Source: Candidatus Thorarchaeota archaeon (GTDB lineage: Archaea > Asgardarchaeota > Heimdallarchaeia > Hodarchaeales > Hodarchaeaceae). From it: 32,000 nucleotides of DNA. The stretch spans positions 60,001 to 92,000 of the forward strand of contig JBHLRO010000005.1 of the NCBI GenBank assembly GCA_048882505.1. The letters run 5' to 3'. How positions within the stretch are numbered: the stretch's first letter is position 1; the number at the start of each line of letters is the position of its first letter. This document shows positions 7,945 through 31,602 of the stretch, piece after piece. Made by a program: the position numbers and the translations under genes. The notes under the pieces were generated by a model. The model worked only from the letters and a program-made list of their open reading frames with translations. It was not told where the DNA came from and ran no database searches.

Positions 7945-8781
7945 ATGCGAGGCCATGACACTTTCAGTGGATACTCCACAAATAGCTTTATTTCTGCCGA
8001 TGCGCGATACGCTCAACTTCAAGATTGCCTTCGTTTCGGGATTACTCAGCTAGATGAACTGTTGGTAGGGGCGCTCCGACCTGGAAGCCTGGTACTCTTT
8101 TATGGAGAGTGGTCACGAGGAAGTTTGCGCAAATTCATCACTCAAATGACTGTTTCCTTATTATCTAGTAATCCCACAGTGGATATTGCCTTTGTAGATG
8201 GAGCGAACATATTTCCATATCATGATGTGTCATTAGAGGTCAGGAAGCAGGGATATGATCCGCTAAAATCACTGGATCGTATTCAATTGGCACGGGCGTT
8301 CAATTATCATCAAATCACCGAGATTGTTACAAAAAACCTTCCCCAACTGATACACGAACGGCCGACAATCCGATTAATCTTTGTTCCGCAAATTTCTTCC
8401 CAATATCTCTCCGAAGAGGCTGCGCAGTATCTCGCCTATGCGAAGCAACCCGCAATCGCCTCATTGGCCGAACTCAAGACTACAGTAGGAAAATTGAAGT
8501 CATTGGCACTCCAATATGATCTGGCTGTCATCACAACCGCTGAACCCGCCCCTCATTCTCGAAATAAGGCCTTGGGAGGAACATTTATCGCCCACGCCGC
8601 TACTACCGTAGTACGTGTCTCCCCTGACCCCGCTAGAGGTAGACAGGTGACAAACTATCGTTTCTTCCTCCAGCAAGACCCTGCTCACCCTGAGACAGTG
8701 GGTCAGATTAAGGCTCAACCCCTACGAATGGATCATCCCCTTACCTTAACCCGATTCCTTGATCCAGAAATAAAGGACTGA
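7945..8781 (+). CDS. Inactivated RecA/RadA-superfamily ATPase associated with PolB2
   Basis: FGITQLDELLVGALRPGSLVLFYG entry; Walker A degenerate (GEWSRGSL, no Lys); FVDGAN, IQLARAFNYHQ, GGTFIAHAA are RadA-like motifs. Confidence 0.85.
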   Translation: MRGHDTFSGYSTNSFISADARYAQLQDCLRFGITQLDELLVGALRPGSLVLFYGEWSRGSLRKFITQMTVSLLSSNPTVDIAFVDGANIFPYHDVSLEVRKQGYDPLKSLDRIQLARAFNYHQITEIVTKNLPQLIHERPTIRLIFVPQISSQYLSEEAAQYLAYAKQPAIASLAELKTTVGKLKSLALQYDLAVITTAEPAPHSRNKALGGTFIAHAATTVVRVSPDPARGRQVTNYRFFLQQDPAHPETVGQIKAQPLRMDHPLTLTRFLDPEIKD

Positions 8782-8787
8782 ATACAC

Positions 8788-9069
8788 ATGGGACGTACTC
8801 TCCCGTCATTTCGACGCATGCTCGAAAAAGAACGTTTTGAGTGGGAGCGGCACTTTGCTAGTCGTCTGCGTGGCATCGACAAGACGAGTTTTACTCAATT
8901 ATGGGAAAAGGCCTTTCAATTAGCCGATGCAGCCTCCGGTAACACTCGTCCTCTTGTTTACGACAATGTGGTCATGTCGATGTTAGTCAGCCAGCAATCC
9001 GAAATCCAGCGCTTGAAACAGAAAGTGAAACAATTGGAGGGGGGATCTGGTTCGTCTTCCAATCCCTAG
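8788..9069 (+). CDS. Small alpha-helical/coiled-coil PolB2-associated protein (arCOG07300-like)
   Basis: MGRTLPSFR N-terminus, C-terminal coiled coil, located between the RadA-like gene (6-bp gap) and polB2 (18-bp gap). Confidence 0.8.
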   Translation: MGRTLPSFRRMLEKERFEWERHFASRLRGIDKTSFTQLWEKAFQLADAASGNTRPLVYDNVVMSMLVSQQSEIQRLKQKVKQLEGGSGSSSNP

Positions 9070-9087
9070 ATGGCGTAATATAAGAAA

Positions 9088-11310
9088 ATGTCCCCCAAAT
9101 ACACAGCCTGGCTCCATGACATTACAGCAGCCGATTGGGGAGTCAACATGGTTTGGTTGACCGAGGAAGCTCCGATCCACACATTCTATCCTCTGACCGC
9201 TGAATTCTATATGACCAAAACCGATCGTGACACCATTGCGCAAGTGCTCTCCCATCCACACATCGAGGATGCCCAAGTCGTCTCACGATATCAGTCAATC
9301 CACGATTGGCAGATGGCCGATGTCCTCCAGATCCGAGTTAACCCGAAGAAACTTCAGCAGACCTATCACGATCTGCGACAACATTGGGATCCCTTTCTAT
9401 TTAATGCAGATTTAAGTCTCTATCAACAATTCTGCTTTCAAACCGAATTGTTTCCGTATGCGTACGCAGAAATCGAAGTAGAACGGGGGAAGCTGAAAAA
9501 CAACTGGCAGCTCCTTGAAACCTACGAACAGATGGACTACCGTTCTGTACCGTTTTCTCCCCTCTGGTTTCATCCGACCTTTGAGGAACCCGAGTTTCAA
9601 CGAGGTAAGATCACGGAGATTCGCAGCTGTCGTTCCGTTGTGGATGAAGCAGAAGAAGTAGTGGTATTCCAGGGTTCAGAAGATGAACTACTTCAAGATT
9701 TCTGTCAATATGTTCAGCAAGTTGACCCTGACATCCTGTTTACCAAGGGAGGAGATACATTCCTTCCTCTTATGGGACAAAGGGCCAGCATGAACGGACT
9801 TGGTTACCTGCGCCTGGGGCGTGGCCCTCGATCCCTGGTCAACTACACAAAGCGCCCCACCTTGCCACGGGGCCATACTTTCGTGTCCTACGGACGCGTC
9901 TACTATTCAGAACATGGTGTCTATACAGATGGCGGCCGCCACCATTATGATGTCGGGAACTCGTTCATGTGGGGGGATGGCAACATCGAAGGCATCCATG
10001 AACTAGTCCGCCTCGGTTGTAGCGATCCCCAGCGCATCGCTCGGGGTACTATCGGTACCACCCTGTCGGCAGTTCAAATGCGCACCGCTTATCTGTACAA
10101 AATCCTCATTCCGATGAGAAAAGCTGATGCAGAAGCATTCCGGCCTGCCTGGACAATGATGACTGATGTTGGAGGTTTGGTCTTCAGTCCTCGGGTGGGT
10201 TGGCATCGGAACGTGACCGAGTTTGATTTTCTTTCTATGTACCCAAACATCATGGTCTACCGGAATGTGTCCCCAGAAACTGTGAACTGTACCTGTTGTC
10301 CAGGCAAGCGTCCGGTCCCCCTCACACATCACCATGTGTGTGTAGAACGGCCGGGACTCATCAATTTATCCCTCAAAAACATCTTGAATCGACGGGCTTA
10401 CTTCAAGAAGCATCGGCATCAACAACACTATGAGCGGCGACAACAGGTGCTAAAATGGCTTTTAGTATGTTCATTCGGTTATACAGGCTATAGAAACGCT
10501 CGATTTGGGCGTATTGAGGCTCATGAAGCGATTTCGGCATTTAGTCGTGATGCCTTAACCCAAACCCAGCACATAGCAGCTGATTTCGGCCTTCAAGTAC
10601 TTGCGGGGATTGTAGACTCAATTTGGGTGCAACGACCTGATAAAGAACGTCTGGATGAAGCAACAATCGACCAAATGCTTCGTCGAATCGAGGAAGTAGT
10701 TGATCTTCCTATTGAGCATGCAGCCGACTACCACTGGATTGTGTTCCTTCCTCGTCGTCATGAACCAGCTATCGGTGTGTTAAACCGGTACTATGGCTTA
10801 CGAAGTGACGGGACATTCAAGGTGCGGGGTATTGAGATTCGTCAGTCCTCAAGTCCTTTGATCTGCAAAAAAATGCAAGAGGAAATCCTTCATCTGCTGA
10901 GTAAGGTACGGACACGTTCCCAATTCCGAACCCAGCTCAGGTGTGCCAAAAAAATCCTCCAAGATTATTTGGACCGTTTAGGATCAGGGGACATCCCTCT
11001 TGAAGATCTTACGATTTCTATTCGCCCCTCTCGATCACCTGAAGAATATGTCAGCAATACTCGAACTGCAATTGCTGCACTCCAATTGGCCCGTTCGGAC
11101 GTCAAAGTGGAAGCTGGAATGAAGCTTCGTTATGTCATTCTCGATGCGCAGGCCCAGGACTCTATGGAACGGGTTCGCCCCGTCCAACTTCTCAAAGGCA
11201 ATGAACAATACGATGTGCAAGAGTATCAAAAACTTCTGAAACGCACTTACGAAAATTTAATCCCCCCAGAGTTAGAAGAAAAAAGACAGAATTTAAATCA
11301 ATTTTTTTGA
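9088..11310 (+). CDS. polB2: Family B DNA polymerase, PolB2 group
   Basis: Motif A DFLSMYP, motif B KWLLVCSFGYTGY, motif C GIVDS (PolB2-type replacement of DTD), KVRGIE; exonuclease motifs eroded; operon context typical of PolB2. Confidence 0.92.
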   Translation: MSPKYTAWLHDITAADWGVNMVWLTEEAPIHTFYPLTAEFYMTKTDRDTIAQVLSHPHIEDAQVVSRYQSIHDWQMADVLQIRVNPKKLQQTYHDLRQHWDPFLFNADLSLYQQFCFQTELFPYAYAEIEVERGKLKNNWQLLETYEQMDYRSVPFSPLWFHPTFEEPEFQRGKITEIRSCRSVVDEAEEVVVFQGSEDELLQDFCQYVQQVDPDILFTKGGDTFLPLMGQRASMNGLGYLRLGRGPRSLVNYTKRPTLPRGHTFVSYGRVYYSEHGVYTDGGRHHYDVGNSFMWGDGNIEGIHELVRLGCSDPQRIARGTIGTTLSAVQMRTAYLYKILIPMRKADAEAFRPAWTMMTDVGGLVFSPRVGWHRNVTEFDFLSMYPNIMVYRNVSPETVNCTCCPGKRPVPLTHHHVCVERPGLINLSLKNILNRRAYFKKHRHQQHYERRQQVLKWLLVCSFGYTGYRNARFGRIEAHEAISAFSRDALTQTQHIAADFGLQVLAGIVDSIWVQRPDKERLDEATIDQMLRRIEEVVDLPIEHAADYHWIVFLPRRHEPAIGVLNRYYGLRSDGTFKVRGIEIRQSSSPLICKKMQEEILHLLSKVRTRSQFRTQLRCAKKILQDYLDRLGSGDIPLEDLTISIRPSRSPEEYVSNTRTAIAALQLARSDVKVEAGMKLRYVILDAQAQDSMERVRPVQLLKGNEQYDVQEYQKLLKRTYENLIPPELEEKRQNLNQFF

Positions 11311-24201: not shown

Positions 24202-24645
24202 ATGATTCAAAACATCCTGTTAATTCACGAAACGGGCTTTGGATTAGTATCACGGTCATATGGGGACGATTCGAAGGATCTCGATCTATTTGGTGGATTG
24301 TTAGCCGCCATCTCAAGTTTTGCGGAAAACCTCATGGGAGATGCAATCAACGAAATTCGAATGGATCACCATAATATCTTCTATGAATCGGAACAGGGTG
24401 TGGTTTTGGCCATAATCACACCTAAGAGAACCATATCCAGACGAAAAATATCTGCAATAATGAGGAAGATTCACTCGAACTTTTTGGAAAGATATTCTGA
24501 ATATCTACGTCAAGATTTCTTAGAACCAAAAAACTTTGAGGAATTCTCATTTGAAATAGATAGCATTTTACGGAAGAATGGAGTTCTCGGGACAAAAAGT
24601 TCTCCTGTCAAGGAGAAAATTATTTCAACACTTAAACAAAAATAG
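24202..24645 (+). CDS. Longin-like domain protein (Asgard eukaryotic-signature type)
   Basis: MIQNILLIHETG...SRSY, DLFGGLLAAISSFAENL, INEIRM, IFYE, KIHSNFLERY; SD AAGGAG upstream. Confidence 0.8.
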   Translation: MIQNILLIHETGFGLVSRSYGDDSKDLDLFGGLLAAISSFAENLMGDAINEIRMDHHNIFYESEQGVVLAIITPKRTISRRKISAIMRKIHSNFLERYSEYLRQDFLEPKNFEEFSFEIDSILRKNGVLGTKSSPVKEKIISTLKQK

Positions 24646-25737: not shown

Positions 25738-26901
25738 CTATACCAGGTTGCCACGCTCCTCTTGTTCTCGTTCAAGAGATTCGAAAAGAGCCTGAAAATT
25801 ACCTTTTCCGAATCCTTGTGAACCTTTCCGCTGAATTACTTCGAAGAAGAAGGTGGGTCGGTCTTGGATTGGCCTGCTAAACAGTTGTAATAGATAGCCA
25901 TGTTCATCTCGATCAACCAGGATTCCATGTTTAGCTAAATCCTTCAAGTTTTCATCAATTTCACCGACTCGATCGAGAACTGTGTCATAATAGGTCTGCG
26001 GTACGTGGAGAAAATCTACCCCGTTACCGCGCATCATGCCAATCGTACTGAGGATATCCTGGGTCAGGAAGGCGATGTGCTGGACACCTGCACCATGATA
26101 ATAATTGACATATTCTTCAATCTGAGACATGCGTATTCCATCGGCAGGCTCGTTTATTGGCATTTTCACCTTATCGTTAAAGTTTTTCACAACTTTTGAA
26201 CGAAGAGCCGAGTATTTTGTAGCAATGTCTTTCTCTGTAAACTCTATAAATTCGCCAAAACCGAAAACATCATGATAAAATTTTACCGTTGAATCCATCT
26301 TGCCTAATGGCTGGTTTCCGACAACATGATCAATTCTTTTGAGTCCTGCCTTCGGAGTATCAATTATGGGTTCAATGGGTTGATATCCAGGAAGATATGG
26401 GCCATCATAACCGTCACGTTCTATGAACTTGTGGTTTACATCTCCATATGTCTGTACGATAGCATAACGGGCGGTTCCGTATTCATCCTTAATTTCAGTC
26501 GGTGCTGTGATCCCTTTACCACCTCTAGCAACACATTCCTCCCATGCAACTTCTAAATCACGGACTTGAAGCCCGATAACTTTTACTCCATCGCCATGCA
26601 TAAGGTGATGGGCCGCCATTTCGCTTGTTGGATGATAAGGCGCTGATAAAATTACCTTAGCGTCACCTTGTTGCATAACATAACTCGCAAAATCACGATT
26701 TCCTGTTTTAAGTGATGACCATGCGATAGGTCTGAAGCCGAGTCCGTGCTGGAAATAATAAGCACTTTGTTTCGCATTTCCTACCCAAAACTCCATTGCA
26801 TCAAAATCAGTAACAGTAAGGATATCCGTCGCTTGCTTCATATTTTCAGCTGGGGATGACCTCCGTTTTGTATCCTCACGTTGAACTGTTGCCTGTTTCA
26901 T
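25738..26901 (-). CDS. hppD: 4-hydroxyphenylpyruvate dioxygenase
   Basis: EFWVGNAKQ, HGDGVK, IDHVVGN, SALRSKVV, PINEPA, SQIEEY, GVQHIA, GYLLQLF, FFEVIQRKG, GFGKGNFQALFES; His/His/Glu iron ligands present. Confidence 0.97.
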   Translation of the reverse strand: MKQATVQREDTKRRSSPAENMKQATDILTVTDFDAMEFWVGNAKQSAYYFQHGLGFRPIAWSSLKTGNRDFASYVMQQGDAKVILSAPYHPTSEMAAHHLMHGDGVKVIGLQVRDLEVAWEECVARGGKGITAPTEIKDEYGTARYAIVQTYGDVNHKFIERDGYDGPYLPGYQPIEPIIDTPKAGLKRIDHVVGNQPLGKMDSTVKFYHDVFGFGEFIEFTEKDIATKYSALRSKVVKNFNDKVKMPINEPADGIRMSQIEEYVNYYHGAGVQHIAFLTQDILSTIGMMRGNGVDFLHVPQTYYDTVLDRVGEIDENLKDLAKHGILVDRDEHGYLLQLFSRPIQDRPTFFFEVIQRKGSQGFGKGNFQALFESLEREQEERGNLV

Positions 26902-27140: not shown

Positions 27141-28289
27141 ATGCCTGAAAAGAAATTCACTACAGTATTCCCTTTGGTGAGGGGTAAAACTAGCAAACAA
27201 GCACATGCTGATTTACCAAAATATAATGAAAACACCACTTTTGAGGAAGAGCATGGAAGAAAGGGATTTTTCGGAAAAGTTTCTCATTTATACCATATTC
27301 ATCCTCCAACTGGTTGGATCAACATTGACGGACCACTTAAGCCAGAACTTCTGGATACAAACCTTCTGGAACCTAATGGTTCGAACGATGTATGGAGCAC
27401 GCCTACCGTCCTGATGCAAAATTCGGATGTCAAATTGAAAGTTTCCAAACGTTCTGGACCGATGCCGTATTATTTTCGCAATTCGGAAGGCGATGACCTA
27501 TGGTTTGTCCATCAAGGAAAGGGAACCATCGAAACAACCTATGGTCCTTTGGAGTTCGATCAGGGAGATTATATCGTAATTCCGAGGGGAACCATGTACA
27601 GAGTCGTTCCTGAAACTAAAAATAATCATTTTTTGGTGATCGAATCTAGATCGGAGATCGAAATACCCGATAGAGGGATGTTAGGTCCTAATGCTTTGTT
27701 TGATCCCGCAGTTATAGAGACTCCAGAGCCCGCTCCAATAATTAACTCTGATAAAAAGGATTGGATTGTCCGAGTCAAACGTAATGATCAATATACTGAT
27801 TTCACTTTTCCTTATAATCCAATTGATGTCATTGGCTGGAAAGGAGATGTAACGCCATGGAAACTAAACATTCACGATTTTCGCCCGATTATGTCCCATA
27901 GATACCATTTACCTCCTTCAGCACATACAACATTCCTCAGTTCTACGGGGAGTTTTGTTATCTGTTCATTTGTTCCCAGGCCATTTGAAACGGAAGAATC
28001 GGCGATAAAAGTTCCTTTTCATCATTCAAATGTTGATTATGATGAAATAATCTTTTATCATGATGGTAATTTCTTCTCAAGGGATAATATTAGCTCTGGT
28101 ATGATAACATTTCACCCGTGCGGATTTACGCATGGCCCACATCCCAAGGCCCTAACTAAGATGTTTAAGCAAAATAAAACAATGACAGATGAATATGCAG
28201 TAATGCTTGATACAAAAAATCCCATGGAATTAACTCCTGAAGGAAGAGGAGTTGCCAATCCAGATTACTGGAAGTCTTGGATGAGCTAA
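27141..28289 (+). CDS. hmgA: Homogentisate 1,2-dioxygenase
   Basis: EEEHGRKGFFG, FRNSEGDDLWFVHQGKG, GDYIVIPRG, HYHLPPS-like HRYHLPPSAH, HSNVDYDE, HPCGFTHGPH, YAVMLDT. Confidence 0.93.
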   Translation: MPEKKFTTVFPLVRGKTSKQAHADLPKYNENTTFEEEHGRKGFFGKVSHLYHIHPPTGWINIDGPLKPELLDTNLLEPNGSNDVWSTPTVLMQNSDVKLKVSKRSGPMPYYFRNSEGDDLWFVHQGKGTIETTYGPLEFDQGDYIVIPRGTMYRVVPETKNNHFLVIESRSEIEIPDRGMLGPNALFDPAVIETPEPAPIINSDKKDWIVRVKRNDQYTDFTFPYNPIDVIGWKGDVTPWKLNIHDFRPIMSHRYHLPPSAHTTFLSSTGSFVICSFVPRPFETEESAIKVPFHHSNVDYDEIIFYHDGNFFSRDNISSGMITFHPCGFTHGPHPKALTKMFKQNKTMTDEYAVMLDTKNPMELTPEGRGVANPDYWKSWMS

Positions 28290-28323: not shown

Positions 28324-29319
28324 ATGCTACGCAGCCTTTACTCATTCCTTCACACGAGTATTGATTATGCGGGAATCTATCCTCCCGCAAATCTTTCAAT
28401 AGAAATGGCCCTCCGAAAGTATTCAGAATATAGAAACATAGCTGAATCATGGATGCTAGCACGATTTGTAATTGGAACGCCGTTTTTACCTCAACTAGAG
28501 AACTTTGAAGAGATATTTCTTGCCCCGCCTAAATTTAGGTTCTCCATCCTAAATCAGAAGACTAAGAAACTGGAATCCTTCCCACAAACACTTGATTCCG
28601 ATATACAACAAGTTGAAACGTTCATTGAGAACTATAAATCGAATATCCAAATAGAATCTTTTGAGATTAGGCTTCCCGAAGCGGTCGGGCTCACTTCTGA
28701 TGAAAAAGCTATTCTGAACGTTCTAGATAGAACCATGAGCGTCGTTGAAGCAAGTAACCTGCCAAGGGATATTCAAATCTTCTTCGAGAGCACATATCCA
28801 GGCAATTGGAAGATTAAGCTAGAGAATGTACTCAATGGCCTTTCCACTTTGAATCATACATTAGCCAAAAAGTCGTATAATCCAAACAGAATCGGCTTCA
28901 AGATAAGAACCGGGGGCGAAACAAAGGCTTCGATTCCCTCAGTAGAGTTTGTATCGAGAGTCATATACGAGTGTGGTAGGCTTAATATTCCCCTTAAGGC
29001 AACAGCTGGACTTCACCATCCCTTAAGGCATTATGATATTGGATCGGATCAGATTCTGCATGGTTTTATTAATCTGATAGGAGCAGCGGTTCTGAATTAC
29101 GAGAACGAATTAACATTAGAGACGATTCAAAAGATCATTGAAACTGAGGACACCAATGATTTCGTTTTTGGGAATGGAGACTTTAGATGGAACAATTATG
29201 CAATTTCGGAGGTAAAAATTGCAGAGGCAAGACAAAGGACCTTTATTTCCTTCGGAAGTTGTGATTTCGATGATCCTCGTCTAGATCTCAAAAAACTTCA
29301 TTATAAACTACGCCCCTAA
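28324..29319 (+). CDS. Conserved hypothetical (beta/alpha)-barrel protein between hmgA and fahA
   Basis: [40 protein letters not shown]: a family I recall next to fahA/hmgA in bacteria; function unknown. Confidence 0.8.
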
Positions 29320-29357: not shown

Positions 29358-30656
29358 ATGACTACATTGAAGGAAACTATAGATCCGAATTTACGCTCTT
29401 TTGTTTCTGTACCCGCAGATTCTCATTTTCCAATTCAAAATTTACCTTATGGTGTTTTTCAAGTTCAAAAACATCCGCCGCGTGTCGGAGTTGCTATTGG
29501 AGATCTGGTGCTCGATCTTGCAGAAATCGATCATCTTGGGTTTTTCCGCGATACGGTTTTGGAAGGATCGCATGCATTTGATCAGCCTTTTCTAAATAAA
29601 TTCATGTCTTTGGGAAGGGAGGCTTGGACTGAAGCACGAATTACAATTTCAGAAATCCTCAATATAGAAAATTCGGTCCTCCAAGATGACCTGGAACTGA
29701 GGAAACGGGTTCTTATACCTCAAGAAGAAGCCAATCTCCGTTTACCGGTCCAGATTGTTGACTACACTGATTTTTATTCATCAAAATACCATGCGTATAA
29801 CGTTGGAGTTATGTTTAGGGGAAAGGAAAATGCCTTGCAACCTAATTGGCTACATTTGCCTGTAGGTTATCACGGAAGGGCAAGTTCAGTTGTGGTAAGT
29901 GGGACATCCCTTCATCGACCACATGGGCAACTGAAATCAGATGAAGAAGATAACCCTAAACTGGGATCATGTAAACAACTGGATTACGAGCTAGAAATGG
30001 GATTCTTCATTGGTGTGGGGAATGATTTGGGAATCCCAATCCCAATAAAAGAAGCCGCCGAACACATCTTCGGAATGGTAATTGTAAACGATTGGAGTGC
30101 ACGAGACATTCAAAGATGGGAATATGTGCCATTGGGGCCCTTTTTGGGAAAGAGTTTTGGCACATCTATTTCCCCCTGGGTGGTTACTCTTGACGCATTA
30201 AGTCCGTTTAGAGTGGCCAATACTGAACAAAAGAATCCGACTCCATTACCTTACCTTCGATCCCCTGATAACTGGGGTTTAGATATCGAATTAGAAGTAT
30301 TTATAAAGACTAAAGCGTTGGAAAAACCGTTTCGTGCAGCTAAAACGAATTTAAAGTACCTTTACTGGAATATCCTCCAACAAGCAACGCATCATACAAT
30401 TAATGGCTGTAATCTTCAAACAGGGGATCTACTGGCCACGGGAACTCTAAGTGGACCGAATCCTGGATCTTATGGCTCCCTTCTTGAAACTTCTTGGAAA
30501 GGAACGAAATCATTAAAGCTTCCGAATGGCGAAACTCGAAAGTTTCTTGAAGATGGAGACCGTGTGATAATGACTGGTTGGTGTCAAGGACCAGGATATC
30601 GGGTTGGATTTGGCGAAGTAGTCACGGAATTATTATCCAGCCTTCCTTTAACCTAA
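29358..30656 (+). CDS. fahA: Fumarylacetoacetase (long, eukaryote-like type)
   Basis: [85 protein letters not shown]. Confidence 0.97.
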
Positions 30657-30694
30657 ACCATTGATTGGAGAGTACAGTTAGGAGGAAAAAAAAA

Positions 30695-31087
30695 ATGGAT
30701 TATTATATAATCTGGTGTGATTTGAAGAATAGCGCAAGGGATTTAGAATTTGTCCAAAGCGTCAGAACTTATCTGGGACATCTTCAAGGAAAGGAACTTA
30801 TAGAGGGTTTCAAGATTACGAGACGAAAACTGGGTTTTGGGCCAAATGAATTGGGAGAATTTATGCTAACACTCGCTGTTAGAAATATGGCTCAATTAGA
30901 GAACACTTTTGAGCTGGTAGCAACAAGAGAAGGCGTAGTTGAGGAGTTCCATAGAGCGGTGTATTCTGCCGTTACAAACTTTAAAGCAGCACTTTATCGA
31001 GACTTTCCAGACCCTATCAGGACTTTAAGTGAAAAAAAGAACAGTGTTTCTGGAGAGAAAGATCTACGGGGGAATTTGGAAATTTAG
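30695..31087 (+). CDS. DUF6614-like protein (dimeric alpha/beta-barrel)
   Basis: YYIIWCDLK, RRKLGFGP, LGEF, ALYRDFPD; ATG at 30695 with SD GGAGG preferred over the tracked start at 30665. Family name from memory. Confidence 0.7.
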   Translation: MDYYIIWCDLKNSARDLEFVQSVRTYLGHLQGKELIEGFKITRRKLGFGPNELGEFMLTLAVRNMAQLENTFELVATREGVVEEFHRAVYSAVTNFKAALYRDFPDPIRTLSEKKNSVSGEKDLRGNLEI

Positions 31088-31089
31088 AG

Positions 31090-31602
31090 GTGGAAAAATT
31101 GGATGCCTATACTCAAATTATTCATAGATTAGAAACTCGAAACTTTATGGAGGAACAGAATATTCCTAATGCCATAGTTCGGAAAATTGTTGAAGCTGGT
31201 CGCTTGTCTCCATCCGCAATGAATCGTCAACCATGGAAATTTAAGGTTATTACGAATCAGAGCAAACTAGCGGAATTGGCTTTGATCCATCGACATGCAC
31301 GTTTTGTTGGTTCCGCAGGTTTTGCAGTTGCGGTGTATATATCCGATCAGAAATATGGTCTAATTGATGCTACAAGGGCAATCAGCCATATGCAAATAGC
31401 GGCCTGGTTATTATCACCACGGATTGGTTCATGCTTTAATTTTGGCTGGAACGAAGGGCAGGTCGAAGAAATAATAGGACCAGTTGCCGGATATCAATTA
31501 TTTACCATCATTCCGTTTGGATATCCGAGGATTTCAAACGTTCAGGGTAAGAAAAACAGAAAACCATGGAACGAAGTTGTGCTTGAAGATCAAGGTTCAT
31601 GA
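31090..31602 (+). CDS. Nitroreductase-family flavoprotein
   Basis: RLETRNF, AGRLSPSAMNRQPWKF, GIGSC-like RIGSCF, IIPFGYP. Confidence 0.9.
   Translation: MEKLDAYTQIIHRLETRNFMEEQNIPNAIVRKIVEAGRLSPSAMNRQPWKFKVITNQSKLAELALIHRHARFVGSAGFAVAVYISDQKYGLIDATRAISHMQIAAWLLSPRIGSCFNFGWNEGQVEEIIGPVAGYQLFTIIPFGYPRISNVQGKKNRKPWNEVVLEDQGS

Follow-up and report, generated by a model that had tools for sequence, protein, structure and literature searches.

Gene cluster for homogentisate breakdown in a Heimdallarchaeia genome

We analyzed a 32,000-nt stretch of contig JBHLRO010000005.1 (positions 60,001 to 92,000; hereafter, the window) from a Heimdallarchaeia genome with an estimated completeness of 94.55%. 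The window encompasses genes of the homogentisate route of phenylalanine and tyrosine breakdown, along with a gene denoted here X:

25738–26901, minus strand: hppD, 4-hydroxyphenylpyruvate dioxygenase (TIGR01263, 420 bits against a cut-off of 277)
27141–28289, plus strand: hmgA, homogentisate 1,2-dioxygenase of the short (~380 aa) type (PF20510, E = 4e-15)
28324–29319, plus strand: X, 331 aa, predicted TIM barrel resembling DERA; member of an unnamed family and candidate maleylacetoacetate isomerase
29358–30656, plus strand: fahA, canonical (eukaryote-like) fumarylacetoacetase (TIGR01266, 600 bits against a cut-off of 375)
30665–31087, plus strand: DUF6614 gene, co-oriented with and downstream of fahA
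31090–31602, plus strand: nitroreductase-family gene, also co-oriented and downstream of fahA

The hppD gene is divergent from hmgA and separated from it by 239 nt, whereas hmgA, X and fahA follow one another with gaps of 34 and 38 nt, as the initial annotation of this locus had stated and the ORF coordinates bear out. HmgA matches PF20510 above the cut-off of that family, with a weak match to PF04209 and a match to TIGR01015 below the cut-off; the product of this enzyme in the pathway is maleylacetoacetate. The product of homogentisate dioxygenase is cis, whereas fumarylacetoacetase hydrolyzes the trans form; the isomerase known to act between them depends on glutathione (PMC9338888). The initial annotation had placed X in the slot of the gene for this isomerase (maiA), which it missed in the window; indeed, TIGR01262 was not found in the whole genome, and neither was any glutathione synthetase above the cut-off. 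Another isomerase in the same genome, which that annotation considered as telling against its proposal, did not emerge either: no MDMPI-type protein was detected above the cut-off, the only match being a weak, DinB-like one (E = 4e-4).

A contig from the probable source run spans the 3' half of hmgA, X and fahA with zero differences, and in a Candidatus Heimdallarchaeota MAG, the nearest relative of the window X (81% identity) is followed by fahA, DUF6614 and nitroreductase genes. Thus, the hmgA-X-fahA order is not an assembly artifact. The GC content of the cluster (0.407) equals that of the genome (0.411). The DUF6614 and nitroreductase genes, although kept in the sister MAG, were not seen in 80 other X loci and, therefore, probably lie outside the tyrosine-breakdown pathway.

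With this cluster, a few Heimdallarchaeia are seen to have an intact pathway for aromatic compounds that requires oxygen. No hmgA, X or fahA was found in six genomes of the same genus (G062, G102, G115, G127, G133 and G136; 87–96% complete). The pathway is patchy across Asgard archaea, with hmgA in 5 of 151 genomes, and the X genes of other Asgard archaea, which make up a clade of their own, lie scattered at a distance from hmgA.

A widespread, unnamed protein family

Searches of Pfam, NCBIfam and the PDB sequences with X and two alignments yielded nothing significant, ESM Atlas returned only 'hypothetical protein' clusters, TIGR01262 did not match X, and GST Pfam domains matched neither X nor 119 of its relatives. 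A match to 4-alpha-glucanotransferase (E = 0.03, limited to one motif) was rejected as chance. The family is large: one sequence search retrieved 1,277 relatives, and a profile search gave 5,795 representatives at 50% identity; the named ones are nearly all 'hypothetical protein'. Its members span Actinomycetota, Bacillota, Chloroflexota, Planctomycetota, Verrucomicrobiota, Bacteroidota-related phyla and some archaea, including an actinobacterial branch at ~20% identity that was reached via plasmid records. In a literature search, we found no biochemical or genetic characterization of this family. In a quick tree, the window X groups only with its counterpart from the sister MAG, apart from the other Asgard clade; this tree lacks resolution at depth, and hence no donor is named.

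Among 376 aligned X sequences, the invariant or nearly invariant positions are D14, P20, P21, E114, E155, K193, R195, G197, K225, T227, G229, L230, H231, G247, F248, N250, G311, C313 and P318, with K193, R195 and C313 conserved in 100% of the sequences down to ~20% identity. C313 is the sole invariant cysteine; the other cysteine columns reach at most 55%, and in two of them, the window X has a different residue. The initial annotation had singled out the basic and histidine motifs KIRTGG (193–198) and KATAGLHHP (225–233), both of which are indeed present. Of the two adjacent histidines, however, His231 alone is invariant in the alignment, H232 being replaced in actinobacterial members. The conserved core consists of Lys, Glu, Asp and Cys rather than of a His cluster. 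A histidine-metal site as the main reading of X was rejected because H232 and H246 are not invariant.

Genomic neighborhoods and gene fusions

Across 80 loci from GTDB genomes, fahA lies within 6 kb of X in 70 and is the next gene in 68; hmgA and hppD were found nearby in 12 and 10 loci, respectively, and no other pathway-related neighbor recurs across phyla. Annotated plasmids show the orders hppD-X-fahA-aminotransferase-hmgA in Priestia and hmgA-X-fahA in Rhodococcus and Pseudonocardia. In four of the Planctomycetota-type carriers and two Asgard carriers, a long distance separates X from fahA or the two genes are on separate contigs, which indicates that their link is not only a matter of block transfer. 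In addition, we identified one X::FahA fusion and six fusions of acetoacetyl-CoA synthetase with X at the C-terminus, in all of which the X motifs are largely intact.

The near-constant adjacency to fahA, together with the X::FahA fusion, could indicate that X is a non-catalytic partner of canonical FahA, that is, an activator, a metal chaperone or a channel. We find this hardly credible, given that the polar residues that are invariant in the family are gathered, as in an enzyme, on the strands of the barrel and in the loops after these (see below), and that homologous FahA proteins of Pseudomonadota occur without X.

The six synthetase fusions (P0261–P0266), which are 49–81% identical to each other, hint at a different role, in which X would act downstream, on the FahA product acetoacetate, through Schiff-base decarboxylation or hand-over to acetoacetyl-CoA synthetase; acetoacetate decarboxylase likewise employs a lysine Schiff base. 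Several observations make such a role improbable. In both fusion loci examined (L137:2590-5676 and L138:8001-11036), the order is (hppD-)hmgA-aminotransferase-[synthetase::X]-fahA, so that the fused gene directly precedes fahA and may have arisen by fusion of operon neighbors; the synthetase was not seen as a recurring neighbor of X in the 80 loci; decarboxylation would be wasteful of carbon and would counteract the synthetase to which X is fused; and the invariant cysteine of X would be left without explanation.

Two further loci deserve mention. A single 1068-aa protein (P0260) joins X to a PF10459 domain, possibly, through an artifact of gene calling or a frameshift. On the Streptomyces plasmid NZ_CP108982, a gene with a maleylpyruvate-isomerase N-domain lies two genes upstream of X-fahA (L134:5346-9085), with no hmgA annotated within 7 kb; the presence of this gene counts against the reading of X as an isomerase.

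Phylogenetic profiles of X and the homogentisate pathway

We searched for X and canonical FahA independently in 500 randomly drawn genomes from three phyla (150 + 200 + 150), excluding the genomes on which the samples were centered. In the pooled samples, 27 genomes have canonical FahA, and X was detected in 19 of them; the other 473 genomes yielded no X. Related genomes are not independent, and kinship inflates all these counts. Among 150 Asgard genomes, X was found in 3, FahA in 5 and hmgA in 4; among 200 genomes of the phylum of G186, apparently Planctomycetota, X and FahA were present in the same 9 genomes, and hmgA in those 9 and 4 more; among 150 Chloroflexota (the phylum of G161), there were 7 genomes with X and 13 with FahA. 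Of 50 genomes encoding X, 46 carry hmgA and none has a maiA scoring above the TIGR01262 cut-off. This absence is partly taxonomic because the sampled phyla carry essentially no maiA (0 of 181 genomes in the apparently Planctomycetota set).

Such profiling had been suggested in the initial annotation, and its expectation holds insofar as X tracks hmgA and canonical FahA in genomes where maiA was not found, but not to the point of X being obligatory, given that 8 of the 27 genomes with canonical FahA show no X. These are G107, G145, four similar Chloroflexota, G502 and G535. The case of G107 is explained by fahA starting at the contig end, at the slot of X. In the four similar Chloroflexota genomes, hmgA directly precedes fahA, and G502 has the order hppD-hmgA-fahA; six of the eight genomes were checked for both X and maiA, and neither was found. 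X is therefore tightly bound to the pathway without being obligatory for it, since there are genomes with hmgA and fahA in which no X was found.

At the corresponding loci of G145 (Asgard, L105) and of Chloroflexota (L164–L167 and L169), hmgA adjoins or lies near canonical fahA, with neither X nor maiA found in those genomes that were searched for both. Organisms of this kind may have a hole in the pathway or may rely on non-enzymatic isomerization. A non-enzymatic, thiol-dependent bypass has reportedly been observed in MAAI-null mice.

That X follows FahA more tightly than hmgA and is dispensable in some genomes with hmgA and fahA would also fit a function in metabolite repair or detoxification around FahA, with isomerization proceeding spontaneously with cellular thiols. 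The substrates would then be maleylacetone, fumarylacetone, succinylacetoacetate, succinylacetone or thiol adducts, and the Schiff-base lysine that we predict for X (see below) would suit beta-diketones, in line with class I aldolase chemistry. We nevertheless regard repair as unlikely because the same by-products arise in Pseudomonadota with MaiA, whose fahA plasmids nevertheless yielded no X, and because X sits at the gap in a three-step pathway, in genomes in which searches turned up no other isomerase.

Plasmid records served as a control for the converse pattern. We found fahA on 252 records, mostly from Pseudomonadota, and X on 23, none of them from Pseudomonadota. On plasmids of Acinetobacter, Roseomonas, Sphingobium and one Paracoccus, maiA adjoins fahA and takes the slot next to it; at the Ralstonia locus and that of a second Paracoccus plasmid, maiA is not next to fahA.

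The four Planctomycetota-type genomes that have hmgA but no canonical FahA also lack X and maiA. In three of these (G270, G370 and G391), the vicinity of hmgA contains a different FAH-family gene of ~330–350 aa, accompanied in one of them by a flavin-reductase-like gene. This alternative FAH-family gene possibly represents a second isomerase-free route, with direct hydrolysis of maleylacetoacetate.

In one sample center, the fragmented MAG G186, X and hmgA are present, whereas no FahA was found. The record is titled 'Alcaligenaceae'; its X groups with those of Gemmataceae, and its phylum sample is that of a Planctomycetota genome. It is probably mislabeled and is therefore not counted as a case of X in Pseudomonadota.

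Predicted structure and resemblance to DERA

The barrel fold that the initial annotation had guessed emerges clearly from the AF2 model of X, an eight-stranded TIM barrel predicted with high confidence (pLDDT 95.9, pTM 0.93). Foldseek yielded weak, generic TIM-barrel matches (best E = 3e-4). In a VIA-align comparison with 48,161 chains, the top six matches are all DERAs (Z 15.7–13.4, rmsd 3.4–3.8, 212–240 aligned residues), the best at Z 15.7 with rmsd 3.5 over 230 residues (Z 16.1 upon re-ranking), and identity to X is only 9–13% for most of these chains. The next match is L-rhamnose isomerase (Z 13.3). PDB entries 7p75 and 7p76 are also among the matches. No GST, DinB or racemase-fold chains appear among the top fold matches listed.

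The charged invariant residues of X map to strands 1, 4, 5, 6 and 7 or to the loops immediately after strands 7 and 8, that is, in the model, to the usual catalytic face of the barrel, forming a predicted enzyme-like center. The Schiff base of E. coli DERA is formed by K167, with K201 depressing the pKa of this lysine and D102 taking part in the proton relay (PMC6016325; PMC6244999). X has Asp in strand 1, an acidic residue in strand 4, Glu in strand 5, Lys in strands 6 and 7, and Gly in strand 8, which may correspond to those of DERA. With the strand motifs placed in register by eye (DERA/X: IDH/IDYAG, KVIIE/FE, KTSTG/KIRTG, KAAGG/KATAG and IGAS/FGSC), Asp14, Glu114, Glu155, Lys193 and Lys225 of the modeled X appear to fall at the Schiff-base machinery of DERA.

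X also differs from DERA. The insert between strands 7 and 8 is longer in X, with a median of 88 residues from K225 to C313 compared to ~21 between the respective DERA motifs; X has a cysteine at the position of the phosphate-site serine of DERA, as well as the extra Arg195 and His231; and sequence identity is only ~10%. The source genome carries a separate DERA besides X. Neither a match to DeoC (TIGR00126) in NCBIfam nor a DERA in the PDB sequence searches was obtained, and profile-profile comparison with hhalign was not significant (probability at most 1.9%, with a local match on the strand-7 motif). X is therefore not filed as a DERA.

An aldolase-type barrel can cut C-C bonds via an imine, so X might instead hydrolyze or cleave maleylacetoacetate directly to maleate and acetoacetate, as maleylpyruvate hydrolases act on their substrate, without isomerization, which would likewise fill the maiA gap. 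This seems very improbable to us: FahA would become superfluous, whereas all sampled genomes with X retain canonical FahA, whose gene usually follows X directly, and no gene for the use of maleate recurs near X.

X was found only along with canonical FahA, the genomes concerned yielded no maiA, and the conserved center of X is enzyme-like; the simplest interpretation is that X is a substitute isomerase. We infer that X is probably a non-GST enzyme with maleylacetoacetate cis-trans isomerase activity (EC 5.2.1.2) in organisms possessing HmgA and canonical FahA but lacking MaiA. The isomerase step of the homogentisate route is without an assigned gene in many MaiA-less bacteria and archaea, and X is one candidate for it.

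A tentative mechanism and comparison with known isomerases

In DERA, crotonaldehyde bound to K167 as a Schiff base is attacked by C47 in a partly reversible Michael addition (PMC6016325). Given that X appears to have a DERA-type lysine pair, we propose that it could activate its substrate as an iminium. The enone carbonyl would form an iminium with Lys193, in strand 6, and Lys225 and Glu114 would tune this lysine in the way that Lys201 and Asp102 tune Lys167 in DERA. Taking the part of glutathione, Cys313, located just after strand 8, would then attack the activated cis double bond, the bond would rotate, and elimination of the thiol would release fumarylacetoacetate, with Arg195 and His231 perhaps holding the carboxylates of the substrate. 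In a variant of this scheme, the nucleophile would be a free small thiol, such as cysteine, CoA or bacillithiol. The analogy with DERA is incomplete: C47 follows strand 2, whereas Cys313 follows strand 8, and the thiol attack in DERA is accidental and comprises only the first two steps. We advance this combination of lysine iminium and cysteine addition-elimination as a working scheme, which we consider somewhat more likely to be wrong than right.

If the mechanism holds, a DERA-like scaffold would support iminium/Michael catalysis in nature, a chemistry previously reached through the engineering of DERA. X might then be the first of a widespread family of maleylacetoacetate isomerases that need no cofactor, with a class I aldolase-type barrel repurposed and the reaction that poisons DERA turned into a catalytic cycle, a scenario that we consider somewhat less likely than not.

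The proposed reaction and place in the pathway are those of MaiA/HmgC/GSTZ1, the zeta-class GST (EC 5.2.1.2, TIGR01262), which works by reversible addition of a thiol to the enone. X differs in being a predicted TIM barrel that would supply the thiol itself, through Cys313. Another thiol-dependent enzyme, BagL, is a cysteine-dependent isomerase. A non-GST isomerase is also known in the gentisate pathway, namely, the mycothiol-dependent maleylpyruvate isomerase MDMPI of the DinB/YfiT family (PMC5790435). MDMPI and BagL resemble X as non-GST answers to the same cis-trans step, but they belong to the gentisate pathway and are DinB four-helix bundles that have a metal-His site and depend on a free thiol as cofactor. 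No PF11716/DinB match, or indeed any Pfam match, was obtained for X, which lacks a three-His site and has a single invariant histidine. Maleate cis-trans isomerase, of the Asp/Glu racemase superfamily, is cofactor-free and forms an adduct with an enzyme cysteine, using a dyad of two cysteines. It shares with the mechanism proposed for X the idea of cofactor-free isomerization via an enzyme cysteine adduct, but differs in scaffold, in its substrate, maleate, and in having two cysteines compared to the one invariant cysteine of X. The reaction and the non-GST isomerases of the gentisate pathway are known; for the X family itself, no description was found in the literature searched.

Other genes in the window

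Upstream of the homogentisate cluster, a Rad51/RadA-like gene, a small ORF and a family B polymerase gene lie in a row (7945–11310; weak Pfam scores), and a DUF72 gene is located at 1684–2676; these may resemble the archaeal PolB2 repair cassette. A 147-aa protein encoded at 24202–24645 shows a weak match to longin domains (E = 0.0012, below the cut-off). Longin-type proteins are common in Asgard archaea, and this gene fits an Asgard contig.
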